Of a stretch of 32,000 bases of DNA, positions 3,261-27,898 are shown in pieces (position 1 is the stretch's first letter; every line of letters starts with the position of its first letter). The stretch is from Xanthomonas campestris pv. campestris str. ATCC 33913 (GTDB lineage: Bacteria > Pseudomonadota > Gammaproteobacteria > Xanthomonadales > Xanthomonadaceae), in assembly GCF_000007145.1 (NCBI RefSeq), contig NC_003902.1:1357436-1389435 (forward strand), read 5' to 3'. Position numbers and translations under genes: made by a program. Below the pieces are notes generated by a model. That model had not been told where the DNA came from. It saw only the letters and a list, made by a program, of their open reading frames with translations, and ran no database searches.

Positions 3261-3627
3261 TGAGCGGGTAGAGGGGTGGCACGCGGCGGCGATGCGCCCC
3301 TGTTCGCGCTGTGCCGGACGTTGGCTCAGCCGGCGTTTATGCGCAGCGCGCTTGCACGAAGCAGGCGTGACGTTTGCAGTTTTTGCCGGCAAATCCGGCC
3401 GTTTTGCAGCGCTTTGCAAGAGTGTGCTGCCGGGCCTTGAATACCCGGCACCTATGTAACGATGGATGTAACGCTGGGATCTGTTGCCTGAGAAGGCCGG
3501 CCTGTGCCGCCGGCGCGGCGCGTACGTGCGCGGTCCGTGGCTTGCGGCTATCCTTTCCGGCTCGCATTGCCACCCAGGCAGGCGTGTCCGAGGATGGACG
3601 CGGCCGCCAAGGACACGACGACCGATC

Positions 3628-5502
3628 ATGCAAGATCCCATCAATGAGGCGACGGACGCCTCGCAGATCCGCCGCGCAGGCGTCGATCTCAACGGGCTCA
3701 TGTCCGTACTCAGCAAGCATTTGTATTCGACGCCGGTGGTCGCGTTGCGCGAGCTGGTGCAGAACGCGCACGACTCGATCCTGCGCCGGCGCCTGGAGCA
3801 GCCGGAGTGGGGTGGTGCGTCGCTGATCGAAGTGCATGGCGATCCCGCCCAGGGCACCGTGCGCATCATCGATACCGGCGCCGGGCTGACCCAACAGGAG
3901 ATCCACGACTATCTGGCCACCGTGGGCGTGGGCTACACCCGCGGCCTGCGTCAGGGCGGGCATGAAGACAGCGGCCTGATCGGCATGTTCGGGCTGGGCT
4001 TCCTGTCGGCATTCGTCCTGGCACGGCGGGTCACCGTGCGCACCACCTCGTATCAGACGCCGACGCTGGGCCATTGCTATGTGTCCAGCAATGCCGAGCA
4101 ATACACGGTGAGCCCGATTGCCGCACGTGCCCAGGTCGGCACCGAGGTGGTGCTGGAGCTGCATCCGAATTATCTGCCGTTGGCCCAGGAGGGCCGCCTG
4201 CGCGAGATCCTGTCGCAGTACTGCGCGCTGTTGCGCGAGCCGATCCAGATTGGCCGCGATGCACAGCCGATCAACCCGGAGCCGCCGCCGTGGCGCATGG
4301 TCGATGCGGTGCCGTTGCATCCGGTGCAGGCCTGGCGCCGCCAGCGCGAATTTGCCGCGCGCTTCGAGCGTAACTTCGAGCCGTTGTGCTGCATGCCGGT
4401 GCGCAGCGACGAAGGCAGCGATGCAGTCGGTCTGTTGTGGGTGCAGGATGGGGCGACCTACGGCACCAGCGATAACCGCAATCTGTCGGTTTTTTTGCGT
4501 GGCATGTTGCTCCATGACAACGCGCGCGAATTGCTGCCGCCATGGGCCGGTTTCATCGGTGGGGTGATCGAATCCAACCGCTTGACGCCCACTGCCAGCC
4601 GCGAAGATTTGCAGCGCGATGCGGTGTACAGCGCGGTGCAACACGCACTCTCCGAAGCCTTGGTGCAAGGTCTGGCCGAGGTCGCGCGTCAGCAGCCGGA
4701 GGCATGGCGCCGCATCCTGCTCCGCCACAACGAAGCGCTGCTGGGCGCGGCGTTGTGCGACGAGCGCCTGTTCGAATTGTTGATGGAACACGTGCGCGTT
4801 CCCACCTCGCAAGGCGATCTGCCGGCGCAGCAACTGCCGGCGCATGGTGCGGTGCACGTAATCCTGGACAGCGACGCCGGCTTCGAGGAAATGCTGTTCC
4901 GCGCCATGGGCGTGCCGGTGGCCTATGGCAACCGCTATGCGGTGGTGCCGTTCCTGCGCCGCTGGGCGCAGGCCAAGGGCGTGCGGCTGGTCGAACTGGG
5001 CACCGAACAAGGCAACCGGCAGCTGTTCCATCTGGACAGCCTGCCTGCCGACGAACTGGCCTGGCTGGAGCAGCACCTGGGCGATGGCGAGGCCCTGGTG
5101 CCGGCGCGTTTCAGCCCGGAGGAATTGCCGCTGGTGGTGGTGCCCGACCGTGAGGCGGAGCTCAAGCGGCGTCTGGAACAGGACGAGAACGACAAGCGCG
5201 TCTCGACCGCGGCCTTGCGCCTGGCGCGGCAGTTCACCGCGCGCATCGAATCGCAACAGACCCAGCGGCTGTATCTGAATCTGGACACCCCTGCCTTGCA
5301 GTCGCTGCTGGCTGCGTACCGCGCGGGCAACCCGCAGGCGGCCGTCGCCGCGCGTTTGCTGCGTTCGCTCAAGGTGATTGTTGCTGCACAGGGCCGCACC
5401 CAGCAGACGCCAGGCGCGGCCGAAGCGGAGGCGGGTGTGTCTGCGTTGAATCGGGCCTTCGGCGATTTTGCCGCGGCTGTCACCCACTTGCTGGCGCGCT
5501 GA
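3628..5502 (+). CDS. Hsp90-family (HtpG-like) GHKL ATPase paralogue, 624 aa
   Basis: ORF 3484..5502; ATG at 3628 (MQDPINE...) is preferred. Bergerat-fold motifs occur in Hsp90 order: VVALRELVQNAHDSILRR (cf. Hsp90 ELISNASDA), VRIIDTGAGLTQQEIHDYLATVG (cf. DNGIGMT), GLIGMFGLGFLSAFVLA (cf. GQFGVGFYSAF). The remainder is not recognisably canonical HtpG by eye. No MEEVD-type C-terminus. Confidence 0.8.
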   Translation: MQDPINEATDASQIRRAGVDLNGLMSVLSKHLYSTPVVALRELVQNAHDSILRRRLEQPEWGGASLIEVHGDPAQGTVRIIDTGAGLTQQEIHDYLATVGVGYTRGLRQGGHEDSGLIGMFGLGFLSAFVLARRVTVRTTSYQTPTLGHCYVSSNAEQYTVSPIAARAQVGTEVVLELHPNYLPLAQEGRLREILSQYCALLREPIQIGRDAQPINPEPPPWRMVDAVPLHPVQAWRRQREFAARFERNFEPLCCMPVRSDEGSDAVGLLWVQDGATYGTSDNRNLSVFLRGMLLHDNARELLPPWAGFIGGVIESNRLTPTASREDLQRDAVYSAVQHALSEALVQGLAEVARQQPEAWRRILLRHNEALLGAALCDERLFELLMEHVRVPTSQGDLPAQQLPAHGAVHVILDSDAGFEEMLFRAMGVPVAYGNRYAVVPFLRRWAQAKGVRLVELGTEQGNRQLFHLDSLPADELAWLEQHLGDGEALVPARFSPEELPLVVVPDREAELKRRLEQDENDKRVSTAALRLARQFTARIESQQTQRLYLNLDTPALQSLLAAYRAGNPQAAVAARLLRSLKVIVAAQGRTQQTPGAAEAEAGVSALNRAFGDFAAAVTHLLAR

Positions 5503-5524
5503 GCGCCGGATCAAAGGACGCGTC

Positions 5525-7849
5525 ATGGAAATCTGGAACTGGGTGGAAAAACTGCAGGACGATCTGGGCGAAGCCGGGCAGCCGCAAAATGCGCAGCTGC
5601 TGACACGCCTGACCGATCACATCTGCGATCTGCAGATCGAGCGTGCCGAGGCGCTATTGCCGGAGGCGCGCGCGCTGGGCAAGACCCTGGCCAACCCGTG
5701 GCTGGAAGTGTTCGTCGGGCATTGGGAAATGCGCAACCGGGTGGGCAACCTGTGCGAGGGCGAACGTGCGTTGGGCGATGCGGTGTCGCTGTTCGAACGC
5801 GCGCACCGCCCCGATGCGGTGGAATGCCCGCAGTCGGTGTGTGTGACCCAGGACCTGGCGGCGTGTTACGCCAACATCGATGGCCCGGGCTGGGTGCAAG
5901 AGCGCATCGAGGTATGCGAAGAAACCCTGGCGCGCATCGACCCCAGCTGGTCGTGCTACCAGTGCCTGAGCTGCGAAAAGGCCGACGCCTTGCTCGACGA
6001 TGGCCGCGGCGATGCGGCGCTGGCGTATCTGGAGCAGCAGTCGGGAACCATCCTGGCGCACGGCGGCGAGATCTACGACGGCGTGCCGGACATGCGTATC
6101 TCGATCCTGCTGGCGCTGGGCCGCGCTGCCGAGGCGCTGGAACTGGTCGAGCAGCGCGAGCGCGAGGCTGCGCGCGAAGGCGCGGAGTGGGCCAACTGCA
6201 GCCAGCCGCGTCAGTTGCAGAAAACCCGCGCGCTGGCCTTGTTGGGGCGCGACGAAGAGGCCATGCAGGCCCTGCTGCTGTGGCGCGATGTGGCGCCGCG
6301 CTATCGCCTGCACTGGTTGCGTGCGGTGGCGGTGCTGGTGTCGCGCGCGCCCGAGCGCAACAGCTGGGACCTGGGCAGCCGCGTGCAGACCATGCTGGAC
6401 CACTACGCGCAGGTGGGTGCGCACCGCATCTTGATCGAAGCAGCGGAGCTTGCGATCGGGATGGCCTTGCAGCGCGGCGCGGTGTGGACCGCGCGCCGGC
6501 ACCTGGCGCTGGCCCGCGCGCATGTGCCCAGGCTGCGGCTGGACCGTGGCGCCACCGAGTTGCTGAACACCCTGGCCGCACGCATCGATGCGGCGCCGGT
6601 GAGCGCGCCGCCGCCGGCGCCCGCCGACCAGTTGCTGGCGTGGTTGTCCGCGCAGGACCAGGAGTCCGCGCGCAATCCGGAACAGGAAGCGCAGTGGTTG
6701 CTGCAGGCAGTGGCCGAGCGGCCCGACGATGCCGAACTGGTGGACACCACCGCATCGGCCTTGAGCGCATGCGCAGCCGATGAAGACGCGATCGCCTTGC
6801 TGTGGCAGTTCGTGCAGCGGCACGCCGATCGCGAAACCAGCCCCACGTTCCGGCTGATGAATCTCTTGCTCGGCCGTGGCGACGAGGCCAGCGTGTGCCG
6901 TCTGGCGCAGCTGTATCGTGCCCAGGTGCCGGTGGCGGCGTTGTGGTGCGAAGCGCAGCTGGCACAGCGGCTGGCCGACTGGCCCGCGCTGGAGCAGGCC
7001 TGCGCCGCATTGCTGGCGCTCTCGCCGAGCTCGCACGGTGCGCGCGGGCTGTTGGCGCGCATGTACCTCAACACCGGGCGTTTCGCCGAGTCGGCCGACG
7101 TCTATCGGCAGCTGACTGAGCTACTGGAAGAACCACGCTCGGCATATTGGGACCACATGACCGCCGCCAGTGCGGCGCAGGACTGGGACGCAGTGCGTGC
7201 CTGCGCGCAGGCAATCGGCATGGAGTTGAGCAGCACCAGTGGCGTGGTCGAGGAGACCTGGGGCTGGGTGATCATCCGCTGCATCGAAGACGGCGAAGTG
7301 GCCGAGTATTACGCGCGCCGCACCGGGCCGGTGACCGCACGCATCGTTGAAAATGCGCCGTCGCAGCGCCGCCAGCACGTGGGCGACTGGGTGGTGTTCG
7401 ACGCGGAGCTGGTGTATCCGCCGCCGGAGGATGAAGCCGAACGCGCACGCTTCGTGCCGACCTATCCGCAGGTGCATGTGCTGCAGGCCGGCGGCTACGG
7501 CAACAGCTGGCTGGTGGATGGCGTGCATCCGGGCGAGCCGGCGATCGACGCCTTGCGCAAGGACATTGAAGCGCGTGGGTGGACGCTGTGGGTGCACAGC
7601 CGCGACGACTATCGCCTGATCGATCCGGACAATGCAGATGCCTTCGATGCGGAAGACCCGCAGTCCGGATTGCCGGGCGTGCTGTTCACCGTCGCCCTGC
7701 CGGAGGCAGTGCCACCGCTGGAACTGCACCGCGCGCTGGTGATGGCGACGGCCGGCTGGCCGCACCGCATGTGCTGGATGCGGCTTGCCGAAGCCTGCGA
7801 CCAGGACACCACCCCGCATATGCAGGCGATCGAGCGCTACGGTCTGTAA
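5525..7849 (+). CDS. Uncharacterised 774-aa protein: Ala/Leu-rich helical-repeat (TPR-like) body, N-proximal 7-Cys cluster, distinct C-terminal domain of about 200 aa
   Basis: ORF 5468..7849. The ATG at 5525 is preceded by AAAGGA and lies 22 nt after the upstream stop. Coding is supported by length and by the following terminator. I recognise no family signature. The TPR-like call rests only on repeated helix-turn-helix-looking A/L/R/E-rich segments. Confidence 0.75.
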   Translation: MEIWNWVEKLQDDLGEAGQPQNAQLLTRLTDHICDLQIERAEALLPEARALGKTLANPWLEVFVGHWEMRNRVGNLCEGERALGDAVSLFERAHRPDAVECPQSVCVTQDLAACYANIDGPGWVQERIEVCEETLARIDPSWSCYQCLSCEKADALLDDGRGDAALAYLEQQSGTILAHGGEIYDGVPDMRISILLALGRAAEALELVEQREREAAREGAEWANCSQPRQLQKTRALALLGRDEEAMQALLLWRDVAPRYRLHWLRAVAVLVSRAPERNSWDLGSRVQTMLDHYAQVGAHRILIEAAELAIGMALQRGAVWTARRHLALARAHVPRLRLDRGATELLNTLAARIDAAPVSAPPPAPADQLLAWLSAQDQESARNPEQEAQWLLQAVAERPDDAELVDTTASALSACAADEDAIALLWQFVQRHADRETSPTFRLMNLLLGRGDEASVCRLAQLYRAQVPVAALWCEAQLAQRLADWPALEQACAALLALSPSSHGARGLLARMYLNTGRFAESADVYRQLTELLEEPRSAYWDHMTAASAAQDWDAVRACAQAIGMELSSTSGVVEETWGWVIIRCIEDGEVAEYYARRTGPVTARIVENAPSQRRQHVGDWVVFDAELVYPPPEDEAERARFVPTYPQVHVLQAGGYGNSWLVDGVHPGEPAIDALRKDIEARGWTLWVHSRDDYRLIDPDNADAFDAEDPQSGLPGVLFTVALPEAVPPLELHRALVMATAGWPHRMCWMRLAEACDQDTTPHMQAIERYGL

Positions 7850-9675: not shown

Positions 9676-9787
9676 CGAATCCCGAATCCCGAATCCCGAA
9701 TCCCGAATCCCGAATCCCGAATCGCGAATCGCGAATCGCGAATCGCGAATCGCGAATCCCCATTCCCCATTCCCCATTCCCCATTCC
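9676..9787. repeat. Compound heptanucleotide tandem repeat: (CGAATCC)x6, (CGAATCG)x5, (CGAATCC)x1, (CCATTCC)x4
   Basis: Counted base by base: 16 contiguous 7-bp units with no interruptions. Intergenic, about 210 nt upstream of rsbR (9997) and about 360 nt upstream of the divergent OYE gene (9316). Confidence 0.95.
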
Positions 9788-9996
9788 CGCAGCCGTGGCC
9801 CGGCGCACGTTCAGCGCTCCGGAGCAATGTCAAACTGGCCTGGAGCGATCCAAATGACCGCTACAGGTTCGTGTCTGGTTGGCAAACCTGAATTGCTTTA
9901 ATCTGCAGCGCTTCGGCGTGGGGGCGCCGCGCCAACTCGGGCGCAGTCCAGCTCGCATGCCACGTCATCGTTTACTACTACTCGACGGGTGATCTC

Positions 9997-10839
9997 ATGG
10001 TGGCATTGCAGCAGCGCACGATCGATGCGATTCGTGGCCAGGAAGGCGGCTTGTTGTCGGCATGGCTGGGCTCCAGCCTGACCGCCGATGCGCGCATTTC
10101 GCACAAGGATGCACAGGCGCAGGGCGCCGACTTTCTGCGCTTGCTGGCGGCTTCGTTGAAGGACGGCGGCAGCAGCCTGGACAGTGCCGAATGGAGCGAA
10201 GTGCGCCGGTTCCTGGAGAACCTCTCGCGTGACCGCGCCACCCGTGGTTTCGATTCGCAGGAAACCGCCAACTTCCTCTTCTCGCTCAAGCGCGCGCTGT
10301 TTGAACTGGTGCAGCGCGAATACGCCGATACGCCGGAAGAACTCGGCCACCAGCTGTGGGCGCTGTCCGAGCTGATGGACGCGCTGGGCCTGCACACCAT
10401 CAAGGCGTTCCAGAAAACCCGCGAAGACATCATTGCGCGCCAGCAGGAAGAGATGCTGGAGCTGTCCACCCCGGTGGTGAAGTTGTGGGAAGGCGTGCTG
10501 GCGCTGCCGATGATCGGCACGCTGGATTCGCAGCGCACCCAGGTGGTGATGGAATCGCTGCTGCAGCGCATTGTCGATACCGGTTCGGAAATCGCCATCA
10601 TCGACATCACCGGCGTGCCCACCGTGGACACCCTGGTTGCCCAGCACCTGCTCAAGACCGTTACCGCCATCCGCCTGATGGGCGCCGATGCGATCATCAG
10701 CGGTGTGCGCCCACAGATTGCACAGACCATCGTGCATCTGGGCCTGGACCTGCAGGGCATCGTGACCAAGGCCAACCTGGCCGATGCGTTGGCGTTGGCG
10801 CTCAAGCGCACCGGCGTGACCGTGAGCAAGGCGGGCTGA
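9997..10839 (+). CDS. rsbR: Stressosome scaffold/sensor RsbR: N-terminal non-haem globin-like sensor plus C-terminal STAS
   Basis: 280 aa. STAS region: ELSTPVVKLWEGVLALPMIGTLDSQRTQVVMESLLQRIVDTGSEIAIIDITGVPTVDTLVAQHLLKTV...GADAIISGVRPQIAQTIVHLG. This is the classic RsbR pattern, followed by RsbS and RsbT. Confidence 0.85.
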   Translation: MVALQQRTIDAIRGQEGGLLSAWLGSSLTADARISHKDAQAQGADFLRLLAASLKDGGSSLDSAEWSEVRRFLENLSRDRATRGFDSQETANFLFSLKRALFELVQREYADTPEELGHQLWALSELMDALGLHTIKAFQKTREDIIARQQEEMLELSTPVVKLWEGVLALPMIGTLDSQRTQVVMESLLQRIVDTGSEIAIIDITGVPTVDTLVAQHLLKTVTAIRLMGADAIISGVRPQIAQTIVHLGLDLQGIVTKANLADALALALKRTGVTVSKAG

Positions 10840-10840
10840 C

Positions 10841-11203
10841 ATGGAGCGCATCCCGATCCTGCGGATGGGTGATCTGTTGCTGGTCACCATCCAGGTGGAC
10901 ATGCACGACCAGCTGGCGCTGACCCTGCAGGAAGACCTGTCGGAAAAGATCAGCGCCACCTCTGCGCGCGGCGTGTTGATCGACATCTCCGCGTTGGACA
11001 TCGTCGACTCCTTCATCGGCCGCATGATCAGCACCATCTCCGGGCTGGCGGCGATCATGGATGCCAAGACCGTGGTGGTGGGCATGCAGCCGGCGGTGGC
11101 GATCACGCTGGTTGAGCTGGGGCTGACCCTGCCCACCGTGCGCACCGCCTTGAATGTCGAGCGCGGCATGCGGCTGCTACAGCAACCTGTGCTCGATCCA
11201 TGA
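10841..11203 (+). CDS. rsbS: Stressosome STAS protein RsbS
   Basis: 120 aa, single STAS domain: IPILRMGDLLLVTIQVDMHDQ...GVLIDISALDIVDSFIGRM...VVVGMQPAVAITLVELG. The conserved phosphorylatable Ser lies in the DIVDSF context. It starts 1 nt after the rsbR stop. Confidence 0.85.
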   Translation: MERIPILRMGDLLLVTIQVDMHDQLALTLQEDLSEKISATSARGVLIDISALDIVDSFIGRMISTISGLAAIMDAKTVVVGMQPAVAITLVELGLTLPTVRTALNVERGMRLLQQPVLDP

Positions 11204-11601
11204 GCACGCCGGCTGGCTCGCAACCGGTGCGTACCGAGCAGGACGTGGTGATGGCGCGGCAGACCGTGCGCAAGCTGGTGGTGCAATGCGGCCTGCGCCT
11301 GGTCGACCAGACCAAGCTGGTCACCGCGGCCAGCGAACTGGCGCGCAATACCGTGATCTACGGTGGCGGCGGCGACATGGACTGGGCGCTGGTGGAGAGC
11401 GGCATCCGCAAGGGCGTGCAGCTGACCTTCCGCGACGAAGGCCCGGGCATCCCCAATCTGGACCTGGCGCTGACCGACGGCTGGACCTCCGGCAGCGGCC
11501 TGGGCCTGGGCCTGTCCGGCAGCCGTCGGCTAGTGGACGATTTCGTGCTGGACAGCGCGCCCGGCAAGGGCACGCGGATCACCATCACCAAATGGAAGTG
11601 A
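11200..11601 (+). CDS. rsbT: Stressosome switch Ser/Thr kinase RsbT (GHKL)
   Basis: 133 aa: LVTAASELARNTVIYGGGG...FRDEGPGIPNLDLAL...GSGLGLGLSGSRRLVDDF...GKGTRITITKW. ATGA start/stop overlap with rsbS (11200..11203). Confidence 0.85.
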   Translation: MSTPAGSQPVRTEQDVVMARQTVRKLVVQCGLRLVDQTKLVTAASELARNTVIYGGGGDMDWALVESGIRKGVQLTFRDEGPGIPNLDLALTDGWTSGSGLGLGLSGSRRLVDDFVLDSAPGKGTRITITKWK

Positions 11602-12602
11602 CGTTTGCAGGTGCGCCGACCCGGTCGATTCGTCTAGACGACGCAAGCCAGGTCGGGCAGGCACGCCGCGAAGCGGTGGCCCTGGCGCAGGCATTGGCGC
11701 TGGATGAGGCCAGCTGTGGGCGCGTGGCGCTGGTGGCCACCGAGTTGGCCACCAATGTGCTCAAGCATGGGCGTGGCGGCTGCGTGCAGCTGTCGCCGGT
11801 GGCCGGGCGCGCCGGCGTTGGCGTGGAGTTGTGCACGCTCGACAACGGCCCCGGATTTGCGCTTTCGCAGTGCCTGCGCGATGGCTATTCCACCTCCGGC
11901 ACGCCGGGCACCGGGCTGGGCGCGATCCACCGCCAGGCGCAGCTGCTGGATGCCTATTCCGATGCGAAGGGCGCCATTGTGGTGGCGCGCGTGTTTGCGC
12001 AGCAAGGCGCTGCCCAGGACCTGGCGTACGGCGCGCTGCGTGTGCCGATCCACAACGAAACCGTGTGCGGCGATGCCTGGCATCTGCAGATCCGCGAGGC
12101 GCGTGCCACGGTAACGGTGATCGACGGGCTTGGCCACGGTGCCGGTGCAGCGGAGGCGGCAGACGCCGGCACCCACGCGGCCGCGGCGGCCACCGGCGAG
12201 CCCGGCGAGCGGGTCACGCGCCTGCATGCCGCCATGTCCGGCACGCGTGGCGGCGCGGCAGCGGTGGCGCAGTTCGATAGCCGCAGCGGGCAGGTCCGCT
12301 TTGCCGGCGTGGGCAATATCGCGGCCGCGCTCTGCGACGGCGATGGCGTGCGCGGCATGCCATCGCATCCGGGCATCGTGGGCGTGCAGTTCCGCAAGGC
12401 GCAGCCATTCGATTTTCCACAGGCCACCGGCAAGCTGCTGGTGATGCACAGCGACGGGCTGCAATCGCGCTGGAATCTGCGCGATCATCCGGGTCTGCTG
12501 TCGCGCCATCCGCGCATCATCGCCGCACTGTTGGTGCGCGATCACGACCGCGGCCGCGACGATTGCAGTGTGTTTGTCATGCGCTTGGGAGGCATGTCAT
12601 GA
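11592..12602 (+). CDS. Fused RsbW-like anti-sigma-type kinase domain plus SpoIIE/PP2C phosphatase domain
   Basis: Reading frame of ORF 11154..12602. The ATG at 11592 (or GTG at 11598) overlaps the rsbT stop. N-terminal half: VALVATELATNVLKHGRGG...LDNGPGF...GTGLGAIHRQA (HATPase_c). C-terminal half: CGDAWH...VIDGLGHGAGAAEAA...LLVMHSDGL...RDHDRGRDDCSVFV (PP2C/SpoIIE pattern). Confidence 0.75.
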   Translation: MEVTFAGAPTRSIRLDDASQVGQARREAVALAQALALDEASCGRVALVATELATNVLKHGRGGCVQLSPVAGRAGVGVELCTLDNGPGFALSQCLRDGYSTSGTPGTGLGAIHRQAQLLDAYSDAKGAIVVARVFAQQGAAQDLAYGALRVPIHNETVCGDAWHLQIREARATVTVIDGLGHGAGAAEAADAGTHAAAAATGEPGERVTRLHAAMSGTRGGAAAVAQFDSRSGQVRFAGVGNIAAALCDGDGVRGMPSHPGIVGVQFRKAQPFDFPQATGKLLVMHSDGLQSRWNLRDHPGLLSRHPRIIAALLVRDHDRGRDDCSVFVMRLGGMS

Positions 12603-13477
12603 GTCACGCAAATGAGGTTCCCGCCATCGACGCGATGGCTGAACTGGAGAGCTTGCGCCAGCAGAATCAGGCGCTGCGCGAGGAACTGGACGAAACCAAC
12701 CAGGGCGTGCTGGCGCTGTATGCCGAGCTGGATCAGCAGGCTGAGCAATTGCGCGACGTGTCCGAGCTCAAGAGCCGGTTTCTGTCGTACATGAGCCACG
12801 AATTCCGCACGCCACTGGGCTCGATCCTGAGCATTACCCGGCTGCTGGAAGACGGCATGGATGGCCCGCTCAACGCCGAGCAGCTCAAGCAGGTGCGCTT
12901 TGTCAGCGCGTCCACGCGCGAGCTCAGCGAAATGGTGGACGACCTGCTGGACCTGGCCAAGATCGAAGCCGGGCGGGTCACCATCTCGCCGGGCTGGTTC
13001 GATCTGATGGATCTGTTTGCGGCCTTGCGCGGCATGTTCCGCCCGCTCACCGACGCCAACCGCACCACCTTGATCTTCGAAGATCCGCCGGTGTTGCCGA
13101 TGCTCTACACCGACGACAAGAAGCTGGCGCAGATCCTGCGCAACTTCATTTCCAACGCGCTCAAGTTCACCCCGCAAGGCCATGTGCGCGTGTTCGCGCA
13201 ACTGCAGGGCGACACCCACGTGCGCTTCAGCGTGCAGGACACCGGCATTGGGATCCCGGCCGAACTGCACGACGCGCTGTTCGAGGATTTCGTGCAGGTG
13301 GATTCGCCACTGCAGAAGCGCCTCACCGGCACCGGCCTGGGCCTGTCGATCTGCAAGCGCTTTGCCGAGTTGCTGGGCGGCACCGTGGGCATCAACAGCG
13401 TGGTCGGGCAGGGCTCGGAATTTTTCGTGGTATTGCCGGTGACGCTGGCGCCGCAGCAGGAGGATGGTCTTGCCTAG
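12599..13477 (+). CDS. Soluble histidine kinase with no sensor or TM domain (coiled coil + HisKA + HATPase_c)
   Basis: The ATG at 12599 forms an ATGA overlap with the upstream stop. About 45 aa of coiled coil (ELESLRQQNQALREELDETNQGVLALYAELDQQAEQL) is followed by the H-box SRFLSYMSHEFRTPL, N-box LRNFISNALKFT, and G-boxes DTGIGI / GTGLGLSI. Confidence 0.85.
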   Translation: MSHANEVPAIDAMAELESLRQQNQALREELDETNQGVLALYAELDQQAEQLRDVSELKSRFLSYMSHEFRTPLGSILSITRLLEDGMDGPLNAEQLKQVRFVSASTRELSEMVDDLLDLAKIEAGRVTISPGWFDLMDLFAALRGMFRPLTDANRTTLIFEDPPVLPMLYTDDKKLAQILRNFISNALKFTPQGHVRVFAQLQGDTHVRFSVQDTGIGIPAELHDALFEDFVQVDSPLQKRLTGTGLGLSICKRFAELLGGTVGINSVVGQGSEFFVVLPVTLAPQQEDGLA

Positions 13478-15404
13478 CAGTCATCGGATTCTGGTAGTGG
13501 ACGACAACGCGGTCACCCGCTACTCGGTGCGGCGCGTGCTCGAACACCACCAGTTCGTGGTCGAAGAAGCCGGGACCGGTGGCGAGGGGCTGGTGCGCCT
13601 GGCTGCCGAGGCATTTGCCGCCGTGGTGCTGGACGTCAACCTGCCGGACATGAGCGGCTTCGACATCGTGCGCACGCTGCGCGCCGAGCCGCGTACCGCG
13701 CTGCTGCCGGTGGTGCACGTCTCGGCGGCCTCGATTGCCACCGGTGACATGATCACCGGCCTGGACGCCGGCGCCGATGCCTACCTGATCCATCCGGTCG
13801 ACCCCAACGTGCTGGTCGCCACCTTGCGCACGCTGCTGCGCGCGCGCAATGCCGAAGAAGCGCTGCGGCTCAGCGAGGCGCGCTTTCGCGAAATCTTCGA
13901 GCACATCGGCGCGCCGATCGCGGTGGTCGATGCGCAGCTGCACACGCAGGAGGCCAATGCGGCGTTTCAGCGGCTGATCGGCAGCGCCACCCCATGCGAA
14001 GCGATCAACGTGCCCGGCCTGGACCAGTGCGCCACCGTGCAGGCCTTGACCGCCGCACTGGGCCGGCGCGAGCGCTGGAGCGGGACCTTGTCGATCCTGC
14101 GCGATGGCGCGGTGCGCGAGACCGAATGGCGGGTGTCGCCGTACCGCGAACCGGACCTGGGCCTGCTGTTTGTCGAAGACGTCACCGAGCAACGCCTGCG
14201 CGAGCGCGAGCAACGCCAGGAACTGGATACCGCCACCTCCGAGCTGGCGCATCAGATTGCCGAGCGCCAACGCACCGAAATCCAGCTGCTGCAGGCGCAA
14301 AAGATGGAAGCGCTGGGCAAGCTCACCGGCGGCATCGCGCACGACTTCAACAACCTGCTCACCAGCATCATTTCCGGCCTGGACATGATCCAGCTGGCGG
14401 TGGAATCCAACCGCATCGAACGCGTGCCACGGCTGGCGGAAATCGCCACCGGCTCGGCGCATCGCGCTGCTGCGCTGACCCAGCGCATGCTGGCGTTTGC
14501 ACGCAAGCAGTCGCTGGATGCGCAGCCGTTCGACGTCAATGCGCGGGTGCGCTCGCTGGAAGACATGCTGCGCCGTTCGATCGGCGAAAACATCGCACTG
14601 GAACTGCAGCTGGCGGAGGCGCCACTGGTGGCCATCGCCGATGCCAATCAACTGGAAAACGTGGTGCTCAACCTGGTCATCAACGCACGCGATGCGCTGC
14701 AGGGCCACGGCACCATCCGCATCCAGAGCGCGCCGCACACCGCCTACAACGACCCGGAGCTGGAGGACGGCGACTATGTCGCGGTGAACGTGATCGACGA
14801 CGGCAGCGGCATCGATCCGGCGATCCTGAGCCAGGTGTTCGAGCCGTTCTTCACCACCAAACCGATCGGCGAGGGCACCGGGCTGGGCTTGTCGATGACC
14901 TACGGGTTTGCGCGCCAGTCCGGCGGCACCGCACGCATCACCAGCACGCTGGGTAGCGGCACCACGGTGGCCTTGTTGTTGCCGCGCGGGCTGACCGTGG
15001 GCGAGGCATTGCCACCGCCGCCGCCGAATGCGCCGCGTGGGCGCTCGCAGCGCATCCTGCTGGTGGACGACACCGATGTGGTGCGCATGATGGTGAGCGA
15101 GGTGCTCAGCGATGCCGGGTACCACGTGATCGAGGCCGAAAACGCCGATGGCGCGCTGGCGCAGCTGCGCGCCGATGCACAGATCGACATGGTGGTGTCC
15201 GATGTCGGCCTGCCCGGCATGAACGGGCGCGACATGGCCGATGTGGCGCGTGATCTGCGCCCCGGGTTGCCGATCCTGTTCATCACCGGCTACGCCGAAA
15301 ATGCGGCCACCCGGCAGGAATTCCTCGCCGAAGGCATGGCGTTGCTGCCCAAGCCCTTCAGCCTCAACGACCTGCTCAATACCGTCAGCCGCATGCTGGG
15401 CTGA
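13464..15404 (+). CDS. Hybrid REC-PAS-HisKA-HATPase_c-REC sensor kinase/response regulator
   Basis: 646 aa. The ATG at 13464 is preceded by GCAGGAGG and overlaps the upstream gene by 14 nt. N-terminal REC: RILVVDDN...VVLDVNLPDMSGFD...YLIHPV. H-box: LGKLTGGIAHDFNNLL. ATPase: VINARDAL...DDGSGI...GTGLGLSM. C-terminal REC: RILLVDD...MVVSDVGLPGMNG...LLPKPF. Confidence 0.88.
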   Translation: MVLPSSHRILVVDDNAVTRYSVRRVLEHHQFVVEEAGTGGEGLVRLAAEAFAAVVLDVNLPDMSGFDIVRTLRAEPRTALLPVVHVSAASIATGDMITGLDAGADAYLIHPVDPNVLVATLRTLLRARNAEEALRLSEARFREIFEHIGAPIAVVDAQLHTQEANAAFQRLIGSATPCEAINVPGLDQCATVQALTAALGRRERWSGTLSILRDGAVRETEWRVSPYREPDLGLLFVEDVTEQRLREREQRQELDTATSELAHQIAERQRTEIQLLQAQKMEALGKLTGGIAHDFNNLLTSIISGLDMIQLAVESNRIERVPRLAEIATGSAHRAAALTQRMLAFARKQSLDAQPFDVNARVRSLEDMLRRSIGENIALELQLAEAPLVAIADANQLENVVLNLVINARDALQGHGTIRIQSAPHTAYNDPELEDGDYVAVNVIDDGSGIDPAILSQVFEPFFTTKPIGEGTGLGLSMTYGFARQSGGTARITSTLGSGTTVALLLPRGLTVGEALPPPPPNAPRGRSQRILLVDDTDVVRMMVSEVLSDAGYHVIEAENADGALAQLRADAQIDMVVSDVGLPGMNGRDMADVARDLRPGLPILFITGYAENAATRQEFLAEGMALLPKPFSLNDLLNTVSRMLG

Positions 15405-15487: not shown

Positions 15488-15490
15488 TTA
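15488..15490. repeat. Left copy of the 3-bp target-site duplication (TTA) of the IS element
   Basis: TTA lies immediately outside IRL. An identical TTA lies immediately outside IRR at 16339..16341. Confidence 0.75.
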
Positions 15491-16338
15491 GAACCTGTTC
15501 ACGATCTTTCCTGATCAGTGCAGACTATGCGGATGCGCCAAAAGACCTATCCAAGTGACATGAGCCGGGAGCAGTTCGAACACGTGCTGCCGATTCTGGA
15601 ACAAGCGCGTAAGCGCACCAAGCCACGCCGTGTGGATATGTATGAGGTGTGGTGCGCAGTGTTGTACTTGCTGCGAACCGGTTGCCAATGGCGAGCGCTA
15701 CCCAGCGACTTTCCAAAGTGGCGGACCGTGCACTCGTACTTTGCCAAGTGGAGCGAGTGCAACGATGAGGGAGTGAGCCTGCTGGAGCAGGCACTTAAAA
15801 AATCAGGTTGGCGTGGTCCGCGCCAGACAGGAGCGCAACGCCTGCAGCAGGTTCTTGATCGTGGACGCGCAGAGCGTAAAGAACACCGACACAGCAGGGC
15901 AAAAGGGATATGACGCGGGCAAGAAGGTGTCGGGCATCAAGCGGCATATCGCTGTTGATACTCAGGGATTGCCCCATGCAATCGCGGTGACGACGGCGGA
16001 GGTGACCGACCGCAAAGGTGCGCTGCAGGCGTTGGAGCGCTGCCAGTCAAACTTGACGCATGTACAAACCTTACTGTGCGACAGCGGTTACACCGGCGTA
16101 CGGTTTGCCGACGGCGTGCGAGAGATTTAGGCGAGCAGCTCACGGTGCAGATTGCCAAGCGCAGCGAACTGCACACCTTCAAGGTCATGCCCAAGCGATG
16201 GATCGTCGAGCGTAGTTTTGCTTGGCTGGAGAAGAACCGAAGGCTATGGAAGAACTGCGAGCGCAAACTCAACACCAGCCTGCAGTTCATCCATTTGGCC
16301 TTCTTGGCACTATTACTCAGAAGATCGTGAACAGGTTC
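15491..16338 (+). mobile_element. IS5-family insertion sequence (IS427/IS1031-like size class), 848 bp, perfect 18-bp terminal inverted repeats
   Basis: IRL is GAACCTGTTCACGATCTT (15491..15508). IRR is AAGATCGTGAACAGGTTC (16321..16338). They are exact reverse complements. The element is flanked by TTA direct repeats and contains DDE_Tnp_1-type transposase coding sequence. Confidence 0.9.
15527..16330 (+). pseudogene. IS5-family DDE transposase split over three reading frames (orfA 15527..15913, middle 15813..16130, C-terminal 16076..16330)
   Basis: Part A: MRMRQKTYPSDMSREQFEHVLPILEQ...LLRTGCQWRALPSDFPKWRTVHSYFAKW. Middle: FLIVDAQSVKNTDTAGQKGYDAGKKVSGIKRHIAVDTQGLPHAI...LLCDSGYTG. C-terminal: FKVMPKRWIVERSFAWLEKNRRLWKNCERK. 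The frame changes lie at an A6 run (15797..15802) and a T3 run (16126..16128). The catalytic D, D residues are in the middle part and the E (VERSF) is in the last part. Confidence 0.8.
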
Positions 16339-16341
16339 TTA
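16339..16341. repeat. Right copy of the TTA target-site duplication; doubles as the TAA stop codon of the GH43 gene on the minus strand
   Basis: The reverse complement of 16339..16365 reads FGPYAYRP-TAA. The TAA is the TSD copy abutting IRR. Confidence 0.75.
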
Positions 16342-18006
16342 CGGCCTGTAGGCGTACGGGCCGAAGGTGGCGCCAAGAAAGCCGCCGGCGGTTTCGGTGC
16401 TGAGCAGGCTGGCGTCGCCGCGTTCGAGCAAGGTCTGCCATTGCCCGTCGCCTACCGCGAAATCCACGTGCACCGTTGCCGCATCCAGCGCAACGCGCAG
16501 CGTCACCGGTTGCGTGACCGCGGGCAGCGGCATGCGCGCCTGGACCACGCCGGTGGGCGGCTCCTGCGTGCCGGCGCGGCGGTACAGCACCACCGCATTG
16601 CCGGCGGCTTCGCGCACCAGCATGGCGGCCAGGAAATGACTTTCCTTGGCGACCACCGCCAGCCCGGCTTGTTCGCCAATGGAGAGGTCGCTGCCATCCA
16701 CGCTGGCCACCAGCGTGGCGTGGTGGTGCTGCAGGCGGTGGCCGAGATAGGCGGGCTGGCCCGCGCCTTCGGTGCCCAGTGCGATGGTCGACGGGGTGAT
16801 GCGCAGGCCGGTCGGGCCGGTGGCAAACCACGGCTGGCGTGGCGGGTGGATGGTCATCCACTGCATCGGCACGCGCGCGCCATCGAAGCGCTCGCTCCAG
16901 TGCATCGGCCCGCTGGTCGGCGTGGCCTGCGTGCCGGCCGGCAGCGGTGGGCGCGTGGCCACCGACGGGATCGCCTTGCCATGTGGCAACACCAGCGGCC
17001 AGCCATCGCGCCATTGCACCGGCAGCAGGAAGGTTTCGCGGCCCAGGGTGTAATGGTTGCCGCGGTACGGGCGGGTGGCCAGAAACACCGCCCACCAGCT
17101 GCCATCGGCAAGTTCCACAAACTGCGCATGGCCAGCGGAGGTGATCGGGGCCGGGCGCGCCGGGTCGAGGTCGCGCTGGGTCAACACCGGATTGCCCGAC
17201 CACGGCTCGTAGGGGCCGGCGATCTGGCGGCTGCGGTAGACCATCTGCGCGTGCTGTTCGCCGGTGCCGCCTTCGGCCGCGGTGAGGTAGTAGTAGCCAT
17301 CGCGCCGGAACAGATGCGGGCCTTCGATGTGCTCGGGATTGCTGGCCGGTTGGAAGCCGGAATCCACGATCACCTGGCGCGGGCCGACCAGCTTCATGCG
17401 CGCCAGATCCAGTTGCTGCAACCAGATGGCGCGGTGGCCGTCGTAGCGCAACGTGCCGGCCGGCACATCGTTGTTGACCAGCCAGGCGCTGCCGTCGTCG
17501 TCGAAGAACAGCGACGGGTCGATGCCCTTGGCGTCCAGCCAGATCGGATCCGACCACGGCCCGGCCGGGTCCTTGGCGGTGATCAGGAAATTGCCCCCGT
17601 CGCAGTAGAAACAGGTGTTGGCGATGTAGAACGTGCCGTCATGGTGGCTGATGCTGGCGGCGAACAGGCCGCGGGTGAGCGCGTCGTTGCCGTAGTTGAT
17701 CTGGCCGGGGCGATCGATGGCGTTGCCGATCTGGATCCAGTGCACCAGATCGCTGCTCTTGAACACCGGCAGGCCCGGGAAATACCCGAAGCTGGAAGTG
17801 ACCAGATAAAACGCGTTGCCGACGCGGATCGCCGATGGGTCTGGATAGAAGCCGGCCAGCACTGGATTGCGGTACTGCGCGTCAGTGGGCACCGCGCCAC
17901 CGTCATCGCCCTGGTAGTCCACCTGGGTGATCAGCGCCGTGCCGGCCATTGCCATCTGGCAGGCCATGGCTAGCGCGATGCCACACATCCATCGCAGTCG
18001 TTCCAC
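16339..18006 (-). CDS. Glycoside hydrolase family 43 beta-xylosidase/alpha-L-arabinofuranosidase with C-terminal concanavalin-like domain; secreted
   Basis: This is the C-terminal 555 codons of the 1285-aa ORF 16339..20196. GH43 motifs: RNPVLAGFYPDPSAIRVGNAFYLVTSSFGYFPGLPVFKSSDLVHW, DPSLFFDDDGSAWLV, IEGPHLFRRDGYYYLTAAEGGTG. The preferred start is GTG at 18006, preceded by GGGGGA-N6, giving signal peptide M-ERLRWMCGIALAMACQMAMA. The ATG at 17988 is an alternative. Confidence 0.85.
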   Translation of the reverse strand: MERLRWMCGIALAMACQMAMAGTALITQVDYQGDDGGAVPTDAQYRNPVLAGFYPDPSAIRVGNAFYLVTSSFGYFPGLPVFKSSDLVHWIQIGNAIDRPGQINYGNDALTRGLFAASISHHDGTFYIANTCFYCDGGNFLITAKDPAGPWSDPIWLDAKGIDPSLFFDDDGSAWLVNNDVPAGTLRYDGHRAIWLQQLDLARMKLVGPRQVIVDSGFQPASNPEHIEGPHLFRRDGYYYLTAAEGGTGEQHAQMVYRSRQIAGPYEPWSGNPVLTQRDLDPARPAPITSAGHAQFVELADGSWWAVFLATRPYRGNHYTLGRETFLLPVQWRDGWPLVLPHGKAIPSVATRPPLPAGTQATPTSGPMHWSERFDGARVPMQWMTIHPPRQPWFATGPTGLRITPSTIALGTEGAGQPAYLGHRLQHHHATLVASVDGSDLSIGEQAGLAVVAKESHFLAAMLVREAAGNAVVLYRRAGTQEPPTGVVQARMPLPAVTQPVTLRVALDAATVHVDFAVGDGQWQTLLERGDASLLSTETAGGFLGATFGPYAYRP

Positions 18007-22108: not shown

Positions 22109-23233
22109 TCAGGCAGCCAGGTTGCGCCGGCGCAGTTTGGCCTCGAACACCACGTCGCCGTCTTCGTTGCGCGCCTGCAAGGTGCCGCCATGCGCCTTGA
22201 CGAACTGATCAGCGATGAATAACCCCAACCCCAGCCCCTGGCTGGCATGGAAGCTGGCCTTGAATGGTTCGAACAACCGCGGCATCAAGGTGTCGGGGAT
22301 GTGGCCGGTGTTGCGCACCGACAGCCGCAGGGTGTCGTGTTCACGGCCATCCAGGTGCACCTGCACCGGGTGGCGCCCACCATGCAGCACCGCGTTGCCG
22401 ACCAGGTTGGACACCACCTGCGCCAGGCGGTCGCCATCGCCATCGCCGTCCAGGTCGCCTTCGGTGCGCAGCTCGATCGGCGTATGCGGGTTGGCCTGCG
22501 CCACTTCGCCCACCACGCTGTGCGCCACCTCGCCCAGGTTGCATGGGCCGAACTGCATCGACAGCCCGTCGGTACGCAGGCGCGAGAAATCCAGCAATTG
22601 TTCGACCATGCGCGCCATGCGCCGCGCGCTGTTTTCCAGATGCTCCAGCGTGCGCGCGGCCGAGCCGTCTTCGGGCACGTCCAGGCCGAGCTTGTCCGCG
22701 CACAGCAGAATCACCGACAGCGGCGTGCGCAGGTCGTGGGTGAGCACCGCCATCATGGTTTCGTTGAGCGTGAGCGCGCGCTCGAGCGAGGCATTGCGGG
22801 CCTTGAGCAGGCGCCGCTGTTGGTACAACTCGATGAACACGTTGACCTTGCTCAGGATCACGTGCGGTTCGATTGGCTTGTGCAGGAAATCCACCGCGCC
22901 GGTTTCATAGCCCTGAAACGCACGCATCGGGTCGTTCGGCGAGGCGGTCAAAAAGATGATCGGCACATGCCGGCTGCGCTGCGAACCGCGCATCAGCTCG
23001 GCCAGCGAAAAGCCGTCCATCTCCGGCATGTGCACATCCAGCAATGCCAGTGCCACATCGTGTTCGAGCAGCAGCTCCAGCGCCTGCGCACCGGAAGCCG
23101 CGCACAGCACCTGGATCCCCTCGCGTTGCAGCAGCGCTTCCATGGCCACCAGGTTCTGCGGCACATCGTCGACGATCAGGATCTTGGCGGGTTCGTCGCT
23201 GCGGGCGGCGGCGCTGGTCGCGGTGAGGTTCAT
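22109..23233 (-). CDS. Response-regulator/histidine-kinase fusion (REC-HisKA-HATPase_c)
   Basis: Start MNLTATS at 23233, with an ATGA overlap with the cheB-like stop; 374 aa. REC: KILIVDDVPQNL...LALLDVHMPEMDGFS...FLHKPI. H-box: MMAVLTHDLRTPLS. ATPase: VSNLVGNAVLHG...GLGLGLFIADQFVKAHGG. Confidence 0.85.
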   Translation of the reverse strand: MNLTATSAAARSDEPAKILIVDDVPQNLVAMEALLQREGIQVLCAASGAQALELLLEHDVALALLDVHMPEMDGFSLAELMRGSQRSRHVPIIFLTASPNDPMRAFQGYETGAVDFLHKPIEPHVILSKVNVFIELYQQRRLLKARNASLERALTLNETMMAVLTHDLRTPLSVILLCADKLGLDVPEDGSAARTLEHLENSARRMARMVEQLLDFSRLRTDGLSMQFGPCNLGEVAHSVVGEVAQANPHTPIELRTEGDLDGDGDGDRLAQVVSNLVGNAVLHGGRHPVQVHLDGREHDTLRLSVRNTGHIPDTLMPRLFEPFKASFHASQGLGLGLFIADQFVKAHGGTLQARNEDGDVVFEAKLRRRNLAA

Positions 23234-23817
23234 GCGTGAAAGGCTTCCAGTCGGCTGCAGATCGCCTGCAGGGTGAGCACCGCATCGGCGCCGGCATGGG
23301 CGAGCGCGGAGGCGGGCATCAGGGGAGATGCGGCATCGTCGGGGCGCTGGATCCACGCGCTTCCGCCGGCAGTGCGCACCGCGGCCACGCCGGCACTGCC
23401 GTCGCTGCTGGCACCGGTGAGCAGGATCGCGAGCAGCCGCTGGCCGAACACATCGGCAGCCGATTCGAACAACGGGTCGATCGCCGGGCGCGAGAACAGC
23501 ACCGGTGCATCCATCGACAATGCCAGGCTGTCGCGGCCTTCCACCAGCAGGTGATAGTCCGGCGGCGCGATGGTCACCGTGCCGGGCTGCAGCGGTTGTT
23601 TGTCGATGGCTTCGCGCACCGGCAGCGCGCAGCGCGCATCCAGCAGCTCGGCCACCTGGCTGGGGCGGTCGCGCGGCAAATGCAGCACCACCAGCACCGG
23701 CATCGGCAGCGTGGCCGGCAGGCCGGACAACAGCGTCTGCAATGCCATCACGCCACCGGCGGAAGCGCCGATCACGATGGCATCGAATTCCAGATACTGC
23801 GGCGTGGCCGGGCTCAT
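23230..23817 (-). CDS. cheB: CheB-type protein-glutamate methylesterase/deamidase, catalytic domain only (no REC)
   Basis: 195 aa: FDAIVIGASAGGVMALQTLLSGLP...PVLVVLHLP...TIAPPDYHLLVE...SRPAIDPLFESAA...LLAILLTGASSDGSAG. ATGA overlaps occur at both ends. Confidence 0.85.
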   Translation of the reverse strand: MSPATPQYLEFDAIVIGASAGGVMALQTLLSGLPATLPMPVLVVLHLPRDRPSQVAELLDARCALPVREAIDKQPLQPGTVTIAPPDYHLLVEGRDSLALSMDAPVLFSRPAIDPLFESAADVFGQRLLAILLTGASSDGSAGVAAVRTAGGSAWIQRPDDAASPLMPASALAHAGADAVLTLQAICSRLEAFHA

Positions 23818-24638
23818 GCGGCCTTCCGGTACAACCGCTGCTCGCGCGCACAGGTTTCGAAGGCCTGTGCATGGGCGCCGAACTGCAGCGACTCCTTGCT
23901 ACCCAGCCCCAGGAAGCCACGGTGCACCAGCGCATCGTAGAACAGGCCCACCGCGCGATCCTGCAGGCTGCGGTTGAAATAGATCAGCACGTTGCGGCAC
24001 GACACCAGATGCACTTCGGAGAACACCGTGTCGGTGGCCAGGCTGTGATCGGCGAACACGATATTGCGCTTGAGCCGGCGGTCGAACACCGCGCCGTCGT
24101 AGGCGGTGGTGTAGTAGTCCGACAACGAACCGCGGCCGCCAGCGTCCAGATAGTTGCGGCTGAACTGGGCAATGCGGTCGATGCCGTAGGCGCCGGCCTC
24201 GGCCATGTTCAGTGCTTCGGGATTGATGTCGGTGGCGTAGATCACCGCGCGCTCCAGCAGGCCTTCTTCGTGCAGCAGGATCGCCAGCGACCAGACCTCT
24301 TCGCCGGTGCTGCAGCCGGCCACCCACAGCTTGATCGACGGATAGGTGCGCAACACCGGTACGGCGTGTTCGCGCAATACCCGAAAATACGCCGGGTCGC
24401 GAAACATTTCCGAGACCTGCACGGTAAAGAACTGCATTGCCTGGGCAAAGGTGTCCGGCTCGTGCAGCAAGCGGTGCTGCAGATCGGCCACGCGCGCGCA
24501 GTCGAAGCGGCCCATGGCGTGGCGCATGCGCCGGCGCAACGACGACACCGCGTAATCGCGAAAATCGTAGTGGTAGCGCTGGTAGACCGCTTCCAGCAGC
24601 ACGCGCAGCTCCAGGTCGAACAGCTCCACTTCAGTCAT
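23814..24638 (-). CDS. cheR: CheR-type protein-glutamate O-methyltransferase
   Basis: Start MTEVELF at 24638, with an ATGA overlap with the upstream kinase stop; 274 aa. FTVQVSEMFRDPAYF...IKLWVAGCSTGEEVWSLAILLHEEGL...IYATDINPEAL...LVSCRNVLIYF. Confidence 0.88.
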   Translation of the reverse strand: MTEVELFDLELRVLLEAVYQRYHYDFRDYAVSSLRRRMRHAMGRFDCARVADLQHRLLHEPDTFAQAMQFFTVQVSEMFRDPAYFRVLREHAVPVLRTYPSIKLWVAGCSTGEEVWSLAILLHEEGLLERAVIYATDINPEALNMAEAGAYGIDRIAQFSRNYLDAGGRGSLSDYYTTAYDGAVFDRRLKRNIVFADHSLATDTVFSEVHLVSCRNVLIYFNRSLQDRAVGLFYDALVHRGFLGLGSKESLQFGAHAQAFETCAREQRLYRKAA

Positions 24639-27775: not shown

Positions 27776-27898
27776 GGAGGTGTGGACCAAACTGGGAGGG
27801 CGGTCATGGTAGCCGATAAATTTCACACGCAAATCGCCGGTTTTTTGACGGATTTACAGCCGTGTTGGCTTGCACATTGCCTTCACGGCTCCGTCACT

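Follow-up and report, generated by a model that had tools for sequence, protein, structure and literature searches.

How might a Ser/Thr kinase switch gate a His-Asp phosphorelay? The question is raised by a six-gene operon of Xanthomonas campestris pv. campestris str. ATCC 33913, which lies in a window of 32,000 nt with a G+C content of ~65% (the window is the whole stretch of DNA analysed, and all coordinates are positions in it). Six plus-strand open reading frames (ORFs) span positions 9997-15404, in the order RsbR, RsbS, RsbT, a kinase/PP2C fusion (gene 4), a histidine kinase (HK5) and a hybrid histidine kinase (HY6) (Table 1). An earlier note, made from the sequence alone, had described this order and the domain content of the products, and both are borne out by the ORFs recovered and by their Pfam matches. 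The junctions that it listed, namely a 1-nt gap followed by overlaps of 4 nt (ATGA), 10 nt, 4 nt (ATGA) and 14 nt from gene 1 to gene 6, were reproduced exactly, and the overlaps suggest that the genes may be translationally coupled.

In our view the operon probably encodes a stressosome (RsbR, RsbS and RsbT, with a reset enzyme of the RsbX type) that signals through a phosphorelay of two kinases and not through the RsbU/RsbV/RsbW/SigB cascade. The Ser/Thr switch would reach the His-Asp relay at a concrete candidate site, a short invariant helix at the N-terminus of HK5. The scanned coding ORFs of the 32-kb window include no sigma factor, RsbV or stand-alone RsbW, and Pfam found RsbU_N in none of the six proteins, in agreement with the previously claimed absence of RsbV, RsbW and sigma-B. 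It had also been remarked that RsbRST modules with non-sigma outputs are known from comparative genomics. Indeed, the combination of RsbR-RsbS-RsbT-RsbX (RSTX) and two-component genes in bacteria without SigB is a class described by Pane-Farre 2005, as cited in PMC9237108 and PMC10014275, and taken up by Heinz 2022 (PMC9237108). The class of system is therefore known and not exceptional, and the Xanthomonas operon is a widespread, uncharacterised variant of it.

Table 1. Positions and domain content of the operon genes, the conserved helix of HK5 and the features following the operon.
Feature	Position	Strand	Length	Domains and remarks
rsbR	9997-10839	+	280 aa	Pfam RsbRD_N (6.8e-20) and STAS (4.4e-13)
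rsbS	10841-11203	+	120 aa	Pfam STAS, single domain
rsbT	11200-11601	+	133 aa	Pfam HATPase_c / HATPase_c_2; GHKL Ser/Thr switch kinase
Gene 4, rsbX-like fusion	11592-12602	+	336 aa	Pfam HATPase_c_2 and SpoIIE (PP2C)
HK5	12599-13477	+	292 aa	Pfam HisKA (58-125) and HATPase_c (172-282); cytoplasmic
HK5 conserved N-terminal helix	12674-12751	+		Residues 26-51, LREELDETNQGVLALYAELDQQAEQL
HY6, last operon gene	13464-15404	+	646 aa	Pfam REC-PAS-HisKA-HATPase_c-REC
IS5-family (IS427-like) element	15490-16339		~850 bp	Perfect terminal inverted repeats (GAACCTGTTCACGATCTT...); TTA target duplication
GH43 beta-xylosidase gene	~16339-17880	-		Glyco_hydro_43 and GH43_C2; followed by a TonB-dependent receptor gene

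Conservation of the six-gene unit

Relatives of the operon were collected by comparing a gene 4 profile with one genome per species. This search found 417 relatives, the best 80 of which were taken as related loci; they belong to Xanthomonas, Stenotrophomonas, Luteibacter, Dyella, Pseudoxanthomonas, Luteimonas and, in two cases, Pseudomonas. The order of RsbR, RsbS, RsbT, the RsbX-like gene 4, HK5 and HY6 is kept in all 80, barring contigs that end early. A second set of 83 distant loci comprised a cyanobacterium, an Anaerolineales (Chloroflexota) genome, an unassigned metagenome contig and 80 metagenome loci. The same order was seen in the great majority of them, with gene 4 identities in the metagenomes going down to 38%. 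RsbR, RsbS and RsbT stand upstream of the fusion gene in 49 of 49 distant loci, a histidine kinase bearing the HK5 motif follows it directly in 63 of 64, and the gene after HK5 begins with a receiver (REC) domain in 46 of 52, being a hybrid kinase in 41 of these 46. The phospho-acceptor and catalytic residues of the six proteins do not vary among 113-163 unique sequences, except that D580 of HY6 is unaligned in two.

The flanks vary among genera, and of seven loci sampled from other genera, five have their first coding-like ORF past HY6 on the opposite strand. The six genes thus appear to be a conserved unit, and their arrangement is not due to chance. The link to two histidine kinases that had been claimed for the module is accordingly backed by strict synteny across phyla, its functional wiring being a prediction. 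Within the operon itself, a consensus scan detected no internal promoters or terminators above shuffled expectation. The G+C content at third codon positions was 0.83-0.90 in the four genes assessed as whole ORFs and 0.84 for a slightly longer ORF (12563-13477) containing gene 5. A scan of the six proteins with NCBIfam gave nothing at curated cut-off.

RsbR, RsbS, RsbT and a kinase-fused RsbX

The identities proposed earlier for the first three genes are upheld by matches to stressosome chains in the PDB and by conserved phosphosites. The best PDB sequence matches of the STAS half of RsbR are the V. vulnificus and Listeria stressosome RsbR chains (~1e-32), and Ser178 (nt 10528-10530) and Thr212 (nt 10630-10632) align to the known T175/T209-equivalent phosphosites, both residues being invariant in 132 unique orthologues. 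The N-terminus of RsbR is of the RsbRD_N (non-haem globin) type, with no other domain given there by Pfam. RsbS aligns with RsbS of Listeria and B. subtilis at 6.5e-31, its DS motif falling on the known phospho-Ser; this phospho-acceptor, Ser57 (nt 11009-11011), is invariant in 134 unique sequences. RsbT, which among solved structures is nearest to the anti-sigma F kinase SpoIIAB, has intact boxes (N-box E46/N50, G1 D79 and G2 GSGLGLG), and E46, N50 and D79 are invariant across 148 unique sequences. Because the best PDB matches are stressosome RsbR and RsbS chains and the known phosphosites are kept, we regard genes 1-3, on their sequences, as true RsbR, RsbS and RsbT orthologues. Their orthology to the solved stressosome proteins further suggests that RsbR and RsbS may assemble into a megadalton pseudo-icosahedral complex that sequesters RsbT. 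In X. campestris, RsbR has been listed as a growth-phase-dependent phosphoprotein (Musa 2013, as cited in PMC9237108), and expression of rsbR on leaf surfaces has been noted in X. perforans (PMC13488318).

Gene 4 had been called a kinase/PP2C fusion. Pfam confirms this with HATPase_c_2 and SpoIIE, and the description can be refined. The protein shares 99% identity with one from X. campestris. Residues 1-140 form an RsbW/RsbT-like GHKL kinase domain (E51, N55, D84 and G106-x-G108) and residues 150-336 an RsbX-type PP2C phosphatase (D161, D178, D288 and D323). By sequence, the PP2C half is closest to MtX, the Moorella stressosome phosphatase (3zt9), and to B. subtilis RsbX (3w40). By fold the result is the same: an AlphaFold2 model (pLDDT 88.6) had 3zt9 as its top Foldseek match (TM 0.87), followed by 3w40, with Rv1364c (3ke6) also among the matches. 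Since its phosphatase half is closest to MtX and RsbX in both respects, gene 4 is the equivalent of the reset phosphatase RsbX with an added kinase domain. With gene 4 so assigned, the whole module amounts to RSTX joined to a two-component system.

The catalytic residues of both domains, the metal-binding Asp residues of the phosphatase included, are invariant in 163 unique sequences. The kinase motifs E-x3-N, D-x-G-x-G and G-x-G are invariant as well. The invariance of both catalytic centres across phyla implies that the kinase domain is no decayed relic. It may serve as a tether to the STAS domains, as a second kinase acting on RsbR or RsbS, or as a kinase of HK5.

The HK5 helix and the predicted relay

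HK5 has just 57 residues ahead of its HisKA domain, and neither RsbU_N nor another N-terminal domain was found on it by Pfam. Among 16 loci sampled from the 80 related ones, residues 26-51 of this short segment are essentially invariant and the first 20 residues freely variable. The helix carries the near-invariant motif EL-x-E-TN-x-GV-x-ALYAELD. Thr33 (nt 12695-12697) and the phospho-His H67 (nt 12797-12799), which stand exactly 34 residues apart, are both invariant in 139 HK5 sequences, which had been picked by BLAST coverage and not by the helix motif. Among 62 unique cassette kinases, the sequence logo shows the helix to match the H-box in conservation; positions not covered by the search pattern are 90-100% conserved, and the phospho-His lies 34 residues past the invariant Thr in 60 of the 62.

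An exhaustive motif search with a 46-residue stretch of HK5 returned 237 clusters among 1.84 billion representative proteins. When 20 of the matches were scanned with Pfam, 19 proved to be histidine kinases with the motif directly before the DHp domain, several of them in tandem copy, and non-kinase output types were absent from these 19 true motif-bearing proteins. One presumed bearer (P0122) was rejected as a generic coiled-coil false positive. On these grounds the helix is a candidate for the place where RsbT, or the kinase domain of gene 4, docks on HK5 or phosphorylates it.

Two published proposals bear on how such a site could work. RsbT is known to activate RsbU by ordering a coiled-coil linker that runs into the dimeric effector domain, a principle that has been extended to histidine kinases encoded beside rsbT and noted in Proteobacteria (Baral et al. 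2025, PMC12143880). In contrast to RsbU, HK5 has ~57 residues before HisKA, no RsbU_N and a different near-invariant motif instead. Heinz et al., on the other hand, propose that where RsbU_N is absent RsbT phosphorylates the downstream kinase (PMC9237108); by analogy, Thr33 of HK5 would be the obvious candidate for that phosphorylation site.

In 24 of 63 loci an additional GHKL domain at the N-terminus makes the gene-5 kinase a long form, and 16 of the long forms also have a C-terminal receiver. The extra domain is 41% identical to RsbT and nearer to it than to the kinase domain of gene 4. The long forms thereby tie an RsbT-type domain physically to the HK5 kinase family. Moreover, the receiver fused to long forms resembles the first receiver (REC1) of HY6 and not the second (REC2) in 17 of 17 cases, which fits a predicted phosphotransfer from HK5 to REC1. 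Two HATPase_c_2-histidine kinase fusions (P0172 and P0148) were considered as RsbT itself fused to HK5; this was rejected, as a separate RsbT is still encoded. The long-form loci are non-Xanthomonadales (L081, L082, L083 and 21 metagenome loci, e.g. L119, L129 and L160), and their kinases often end in one or two C-terminal receivers. Cassettes with such a kinase encode three RsbT/RsbW-like domains, and in L081 gene 6 is cut down to one receiver of 122 aa.

HY6 has the layout REC1(D57)-PAS-HisKA(H293)-HATPase_c-REC2(D580). Of 113 sequences, 111-113 retain D57, H293 and D580, D580 being unalignable in two, so that the two-component residues of both kinases (H67 of HK5 with D57, H293 and D580 of HY6) are present and conserved. 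The kinase core is CckA/PRK13557-like according to NCBIfam, at scores below the family cut-offs, and Pfam found no GGDEF, EAL or HD domain in HK5 or HY6. Ten distant gene-6 homologues scanned with Pfam are of the REC-PAS-HK type, most of them ending in REC, and no Hpt or effector domain was detected in any of the ten. The observation that the relay ends on a receiver lacking an effector, with the output not visible in the window, holds both here and in these homologues. Identification of HY6 with StoS of Xanthomonas oryzae was considered and rejected. StoS has two PAS domains and is preceded by two hypothetical genes (PMC4783713), whereas HY6, with a single PAS domain and a receiver at its N-terminus, lies after RsbRSTX and HK5.

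The mechanism that we propose runs as follows. The STAS domains of RsbR and RsbS would form a scaffold holding RsbT, as their orthology suggests, and a signal would be read by the RsbRD_N domain of RsbR. RsbT would then phosphorylate Ser57 of RsbS and Ser178 and Thr212 of RsbR, all conserved sites, and be released. Once free, RsbT would target HK5, which lacks a sensor, by way of the invariant helix leading into the DHp domain, either by ordering or dimerising it, as with the RsbU linker, or by phosphorylating Thr33, and autophosphorylation of His67 would be altered. To judge from gene adjacency and receiver subtype, HK5~P would pass its phosphate to Asp57 of REC1 and so set the kinase core of HY6, for which the PAS domain would be a second input. 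From His293 the phosphate would move to Asp580 of the protein's own REC2 and on to an Hpt protein or a response regulator whose gene lies elsewhere, unless REC2 acts as a sink or as a protein-binding output. The PP2C half of gene 4 would dephosphorylate RsbR~P and RsbS~P and reset the complex, while its kinase domain would be a STAS tether or a second, opposing Ser/Thr kinase activity.

Several points weigh against this scheme. The helix could simply be a structural element of the kinase subfamily. Since the long-form loci still encode a separate RsbT, the domain fused to their kinases is a third paralogue, and the Rosetta-stone argument for contact between RsbT and HK5 is indirect. The proposed transfer from HK5 to REC1 is deduced from adjacency and receiver subtype. 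In V. vulnificus, interaction between RsbT and the two-component protein D1 was not detectable (PMC9237108). The pathway stays unclosed, as neither the operon nor the scanned ORFs of the window yielded an Hpt domain or an output regulator. Finally, everything past domain identity, residue conservation and synteny is a matter of inference.

A more specific version of the proposal is tentative, and we would not expect it to hold: the helix may serve GHKL Ser/Thr kinases as a dedicated receiver site, with Thr33 phosphorylated by RsbT or by the kinase half of gene 4, the phosphate removed by the PP2C half of gene 4, and phospho-Thr on the DHp stem gating His autophosphorylation. If true, it would represent a general cross-phylum mechanism that couples partner-switching modules to two-component systems, and would explain the fusion of the reset phosphatase to a kinase in this cassette.

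Among the alternatives, the best placed is that the gene 4 fusion, and not RsbT, directly regulates HK5. Its kinase domain would phosphorylate Thr33 or another site on HK5 and its PP2C domain would reverse this, making it a bifunctional switch comparable to HsbR of P. aeruginosa or Rv1364c of M. tuberculosis, itself controlled by the stressosome. Gene 4 directly precedes HK5 with an ATGA overlap, an adjacency retained in the 63 of 64 distant loci given above, both of its catalytic centres are invariant across phyla, and fusions of PP2C with a GHKL kinase do exist (e.g. 3ke6). However, its phosphatase belongs to the MtX/RsbX type, for which RsbR~P and RsbS~P are the known substrates, the GHKL domain on the long forms is nearer to RsbT than to gene 4, and Ser/Thr phosphorylation of HK5 is itself a presumption. 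We therefore consider this alternative unlikely.

Less probable still is that both kinases work independently of RsbRST, the six genes being merely co-transcribed and HY6 answering its own PAS ligand alone. HY6 does carry an input domain of its own, and no Gram-negative system is known with a demonstrated physical link between the Ser/Thr module and a kinase, the interaction test in V. vulnificus having been negative (PMC9237108). Against this stand the near-universal synteny over at least three phyla with overlapping reading frames, the lack of any sensor domain on HK5, which has the invariant helix only, and the finding of that helix only in histidine kinases, adjoining RSTX genes in every locus examined. 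It is likewise improbable that the true target of RsbT is an RsbU/RsbV/RsbW-like set with a sigma factor elsewhere in the genome and that the adjacent kinases provide stressosome input or feedback: only 32 kb of the genome is visible and two-component control of PP2C partner switches exists, e.g. B. cereus RsbK-RsbY (PMC7522486, PMC4574943), but no such genes occur among the scanned ORFs of the window, the same six genes are kept in phyla with very different sigma repertoires, and the kinases have the downstream position relative to RSTX that output modules take in other stressosome operons (PMC9237108).

Known systems and genomic surroundings

The closest studied counterparts of the operon, read as a stressosome with a phosphorelay output, are the loci of Vibrio vulnificus and V. 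brasiliensis, in which rsbR-rsbS-rsbT-rsbX are followed by D1 and D2 (PMC9237108, PMC10014275, PMC4976288). Both these and the Xanthomonas operon are Gram-negative RSTX systems without SigB, RsbU, RsbV or RsbW, with co-transcribed two-component genes directly after RSTX and a downstream kinase that lacks RsbU_N. They differ in three respects. Vibrio RsbR is a haem globin-coupled O2 sensor, while that of Xanthomonas has the non-haem RsbRD_N; Vibrio RsbX is described as a single-domain PP2C, while gene 4 is fused to an intact GHKL kinase domain; and the Vibrio output is predicted to be control of cyclic di-GMP, while the Xanthomonas operon offers a sensor-less histidine kinase and a REC-PAS-HK-REC hybrid only.

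With the stressosomes of B. subtilis and L. monocytogenes the operon shares alignments of the RsbR STAS domain and RsbS at 1e-30 to 1e-32, three conserved phosphosites, intact RsbT kinase motifs and an RsbX-type reset phosphatase. The first RsbR phosphosite is Ser in Xanthomonas and Thr in these two species. Their RsbU-RsbV-RsbW-SigB cascade has no counterpart in the Xanthomonas operon, where the downstream protein lacks the RsbU_N docking domain and the phosphatase gene comes directly after rsbT and is kinase-fused. The MtR-MtS-MtT-MtX-MtG system of Moorella thermoacetica (Quin 2012; 3zt9) also has a non-sigma output, and its MtX is the closest solved relative of the gene 4 PP2C. However, MtX has no kinase domain, and the Moorella output is a diguanylate cyclase with RsbU_N, unlike the histidine kinase pair without RsbU_N found here.

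Fusions comparable to gene 4 occur outside stressosome operons. Examples are HsbR of P. aeruginosa and Rv1364c of M. tuberculosis (3ke6), both fused PP2C and GHKL Ser/Thr-kinase regulators. They share with gene 4 the joining of opposing kinase and phosphatase in one polypeptide, and STAS-type partners. In both of these proteins the order is PP2C then kinase, with PAS, REC or STAS domains in addition and a location outside RsbRST operons, whereas in gene 4 the kinase precedes the PP2C domain.

No paper in the literature searched deals with a kinase-fused RsbX, the HK5 helix motif, this Xanthomonas operon or the constancy of the six genes across phyla, and Pane-Farre 2005 may already list the architecture. 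Vibrio is the only Gram-negative system in which stressosome signalling without SigB has been studied, and attempts there to demonstrate the link from RsbT to the downstream kinase did not succeed (PMC9237108). The Xanthomonas cassette is simpler and far more widespread than that of Vibrio, with six genes, soluble proteins, a sensor-less kinase and one short invariant helix, and the kinase-fused RsbX and the helix make the coupling of stressosome and kinases directly testable. Whatever is learned in Xanthomonas ought to hold for Cyanobacteria, Chloroflexota and many soil bacteria as well. In plant pathology, the cassette would represent a conserved stress-sensing pathway in Xanthomonas and Stenotrophomonas.

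Upstream of the operon, the plus strand carries genes for an AraC-type regulator, an Hsp90-like ATPase paralogue and a domainless protein of 793 aa, and the minus strand one for an Old-Yellow-Enzyme-type oxidoreductase. At 3484-7849, the gene of the Hsp90/HATPase_c_3-like paralogue (672 aa) overlaps the start of that of the 793-aa protein, which has no significant Pfam domain; the two occur together with the upstream AraC-type gene in most Xanthomonas loci. PADLOC models gave no match to the neighbouring unknown genes. The intergenic region of 680 nt before rsbR contains, ~210 nt upstream of the gene, a heptamer tandem array (9676-9789) of 16 copies with 95% matches, made up of CGAATCC (~7), CGAATCG (5) and CCATTCC (~4). 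No such array was found upstream of rsbR in 25 other Xanthomonas loci, and it could be a variable-number repeat affecting the promoter region of the operon.

Downstream, a complete insertion sequence (IS) element with two overlapping ORFs (DUF4096 and DDE_Tnp_1) is inserted 83 nt past the stop codon of HY6, precisely where the convergent GH43 gene has its TAA stop. Whether this element had cut off an output gene was considered. Other Xanthomonas species lack it at the same site and homology resumes directly past it, so no output gene was cut off; the insertion is clean and the convergent GH43 gene follows. Only some Xanthomonas species have this gene between HY6 and the gene of the TonB-dependent receptor, and the intergenic region is thus variable.

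A second signalling cluster is located at 22109-29450. Its minus strand encodes a REC-HisKA-HATPase_c protein, a CheB methylesterase, a CheR methyltransferase and a GAF-HisKA-HATPase_c hybrid with three receivers, and its plus strand a PAS histidine kinase and a single-domain receiver. The cluster resembles CheR/CheB-associated hybrid kinases such as RsbK/RsbM of B. cereus.

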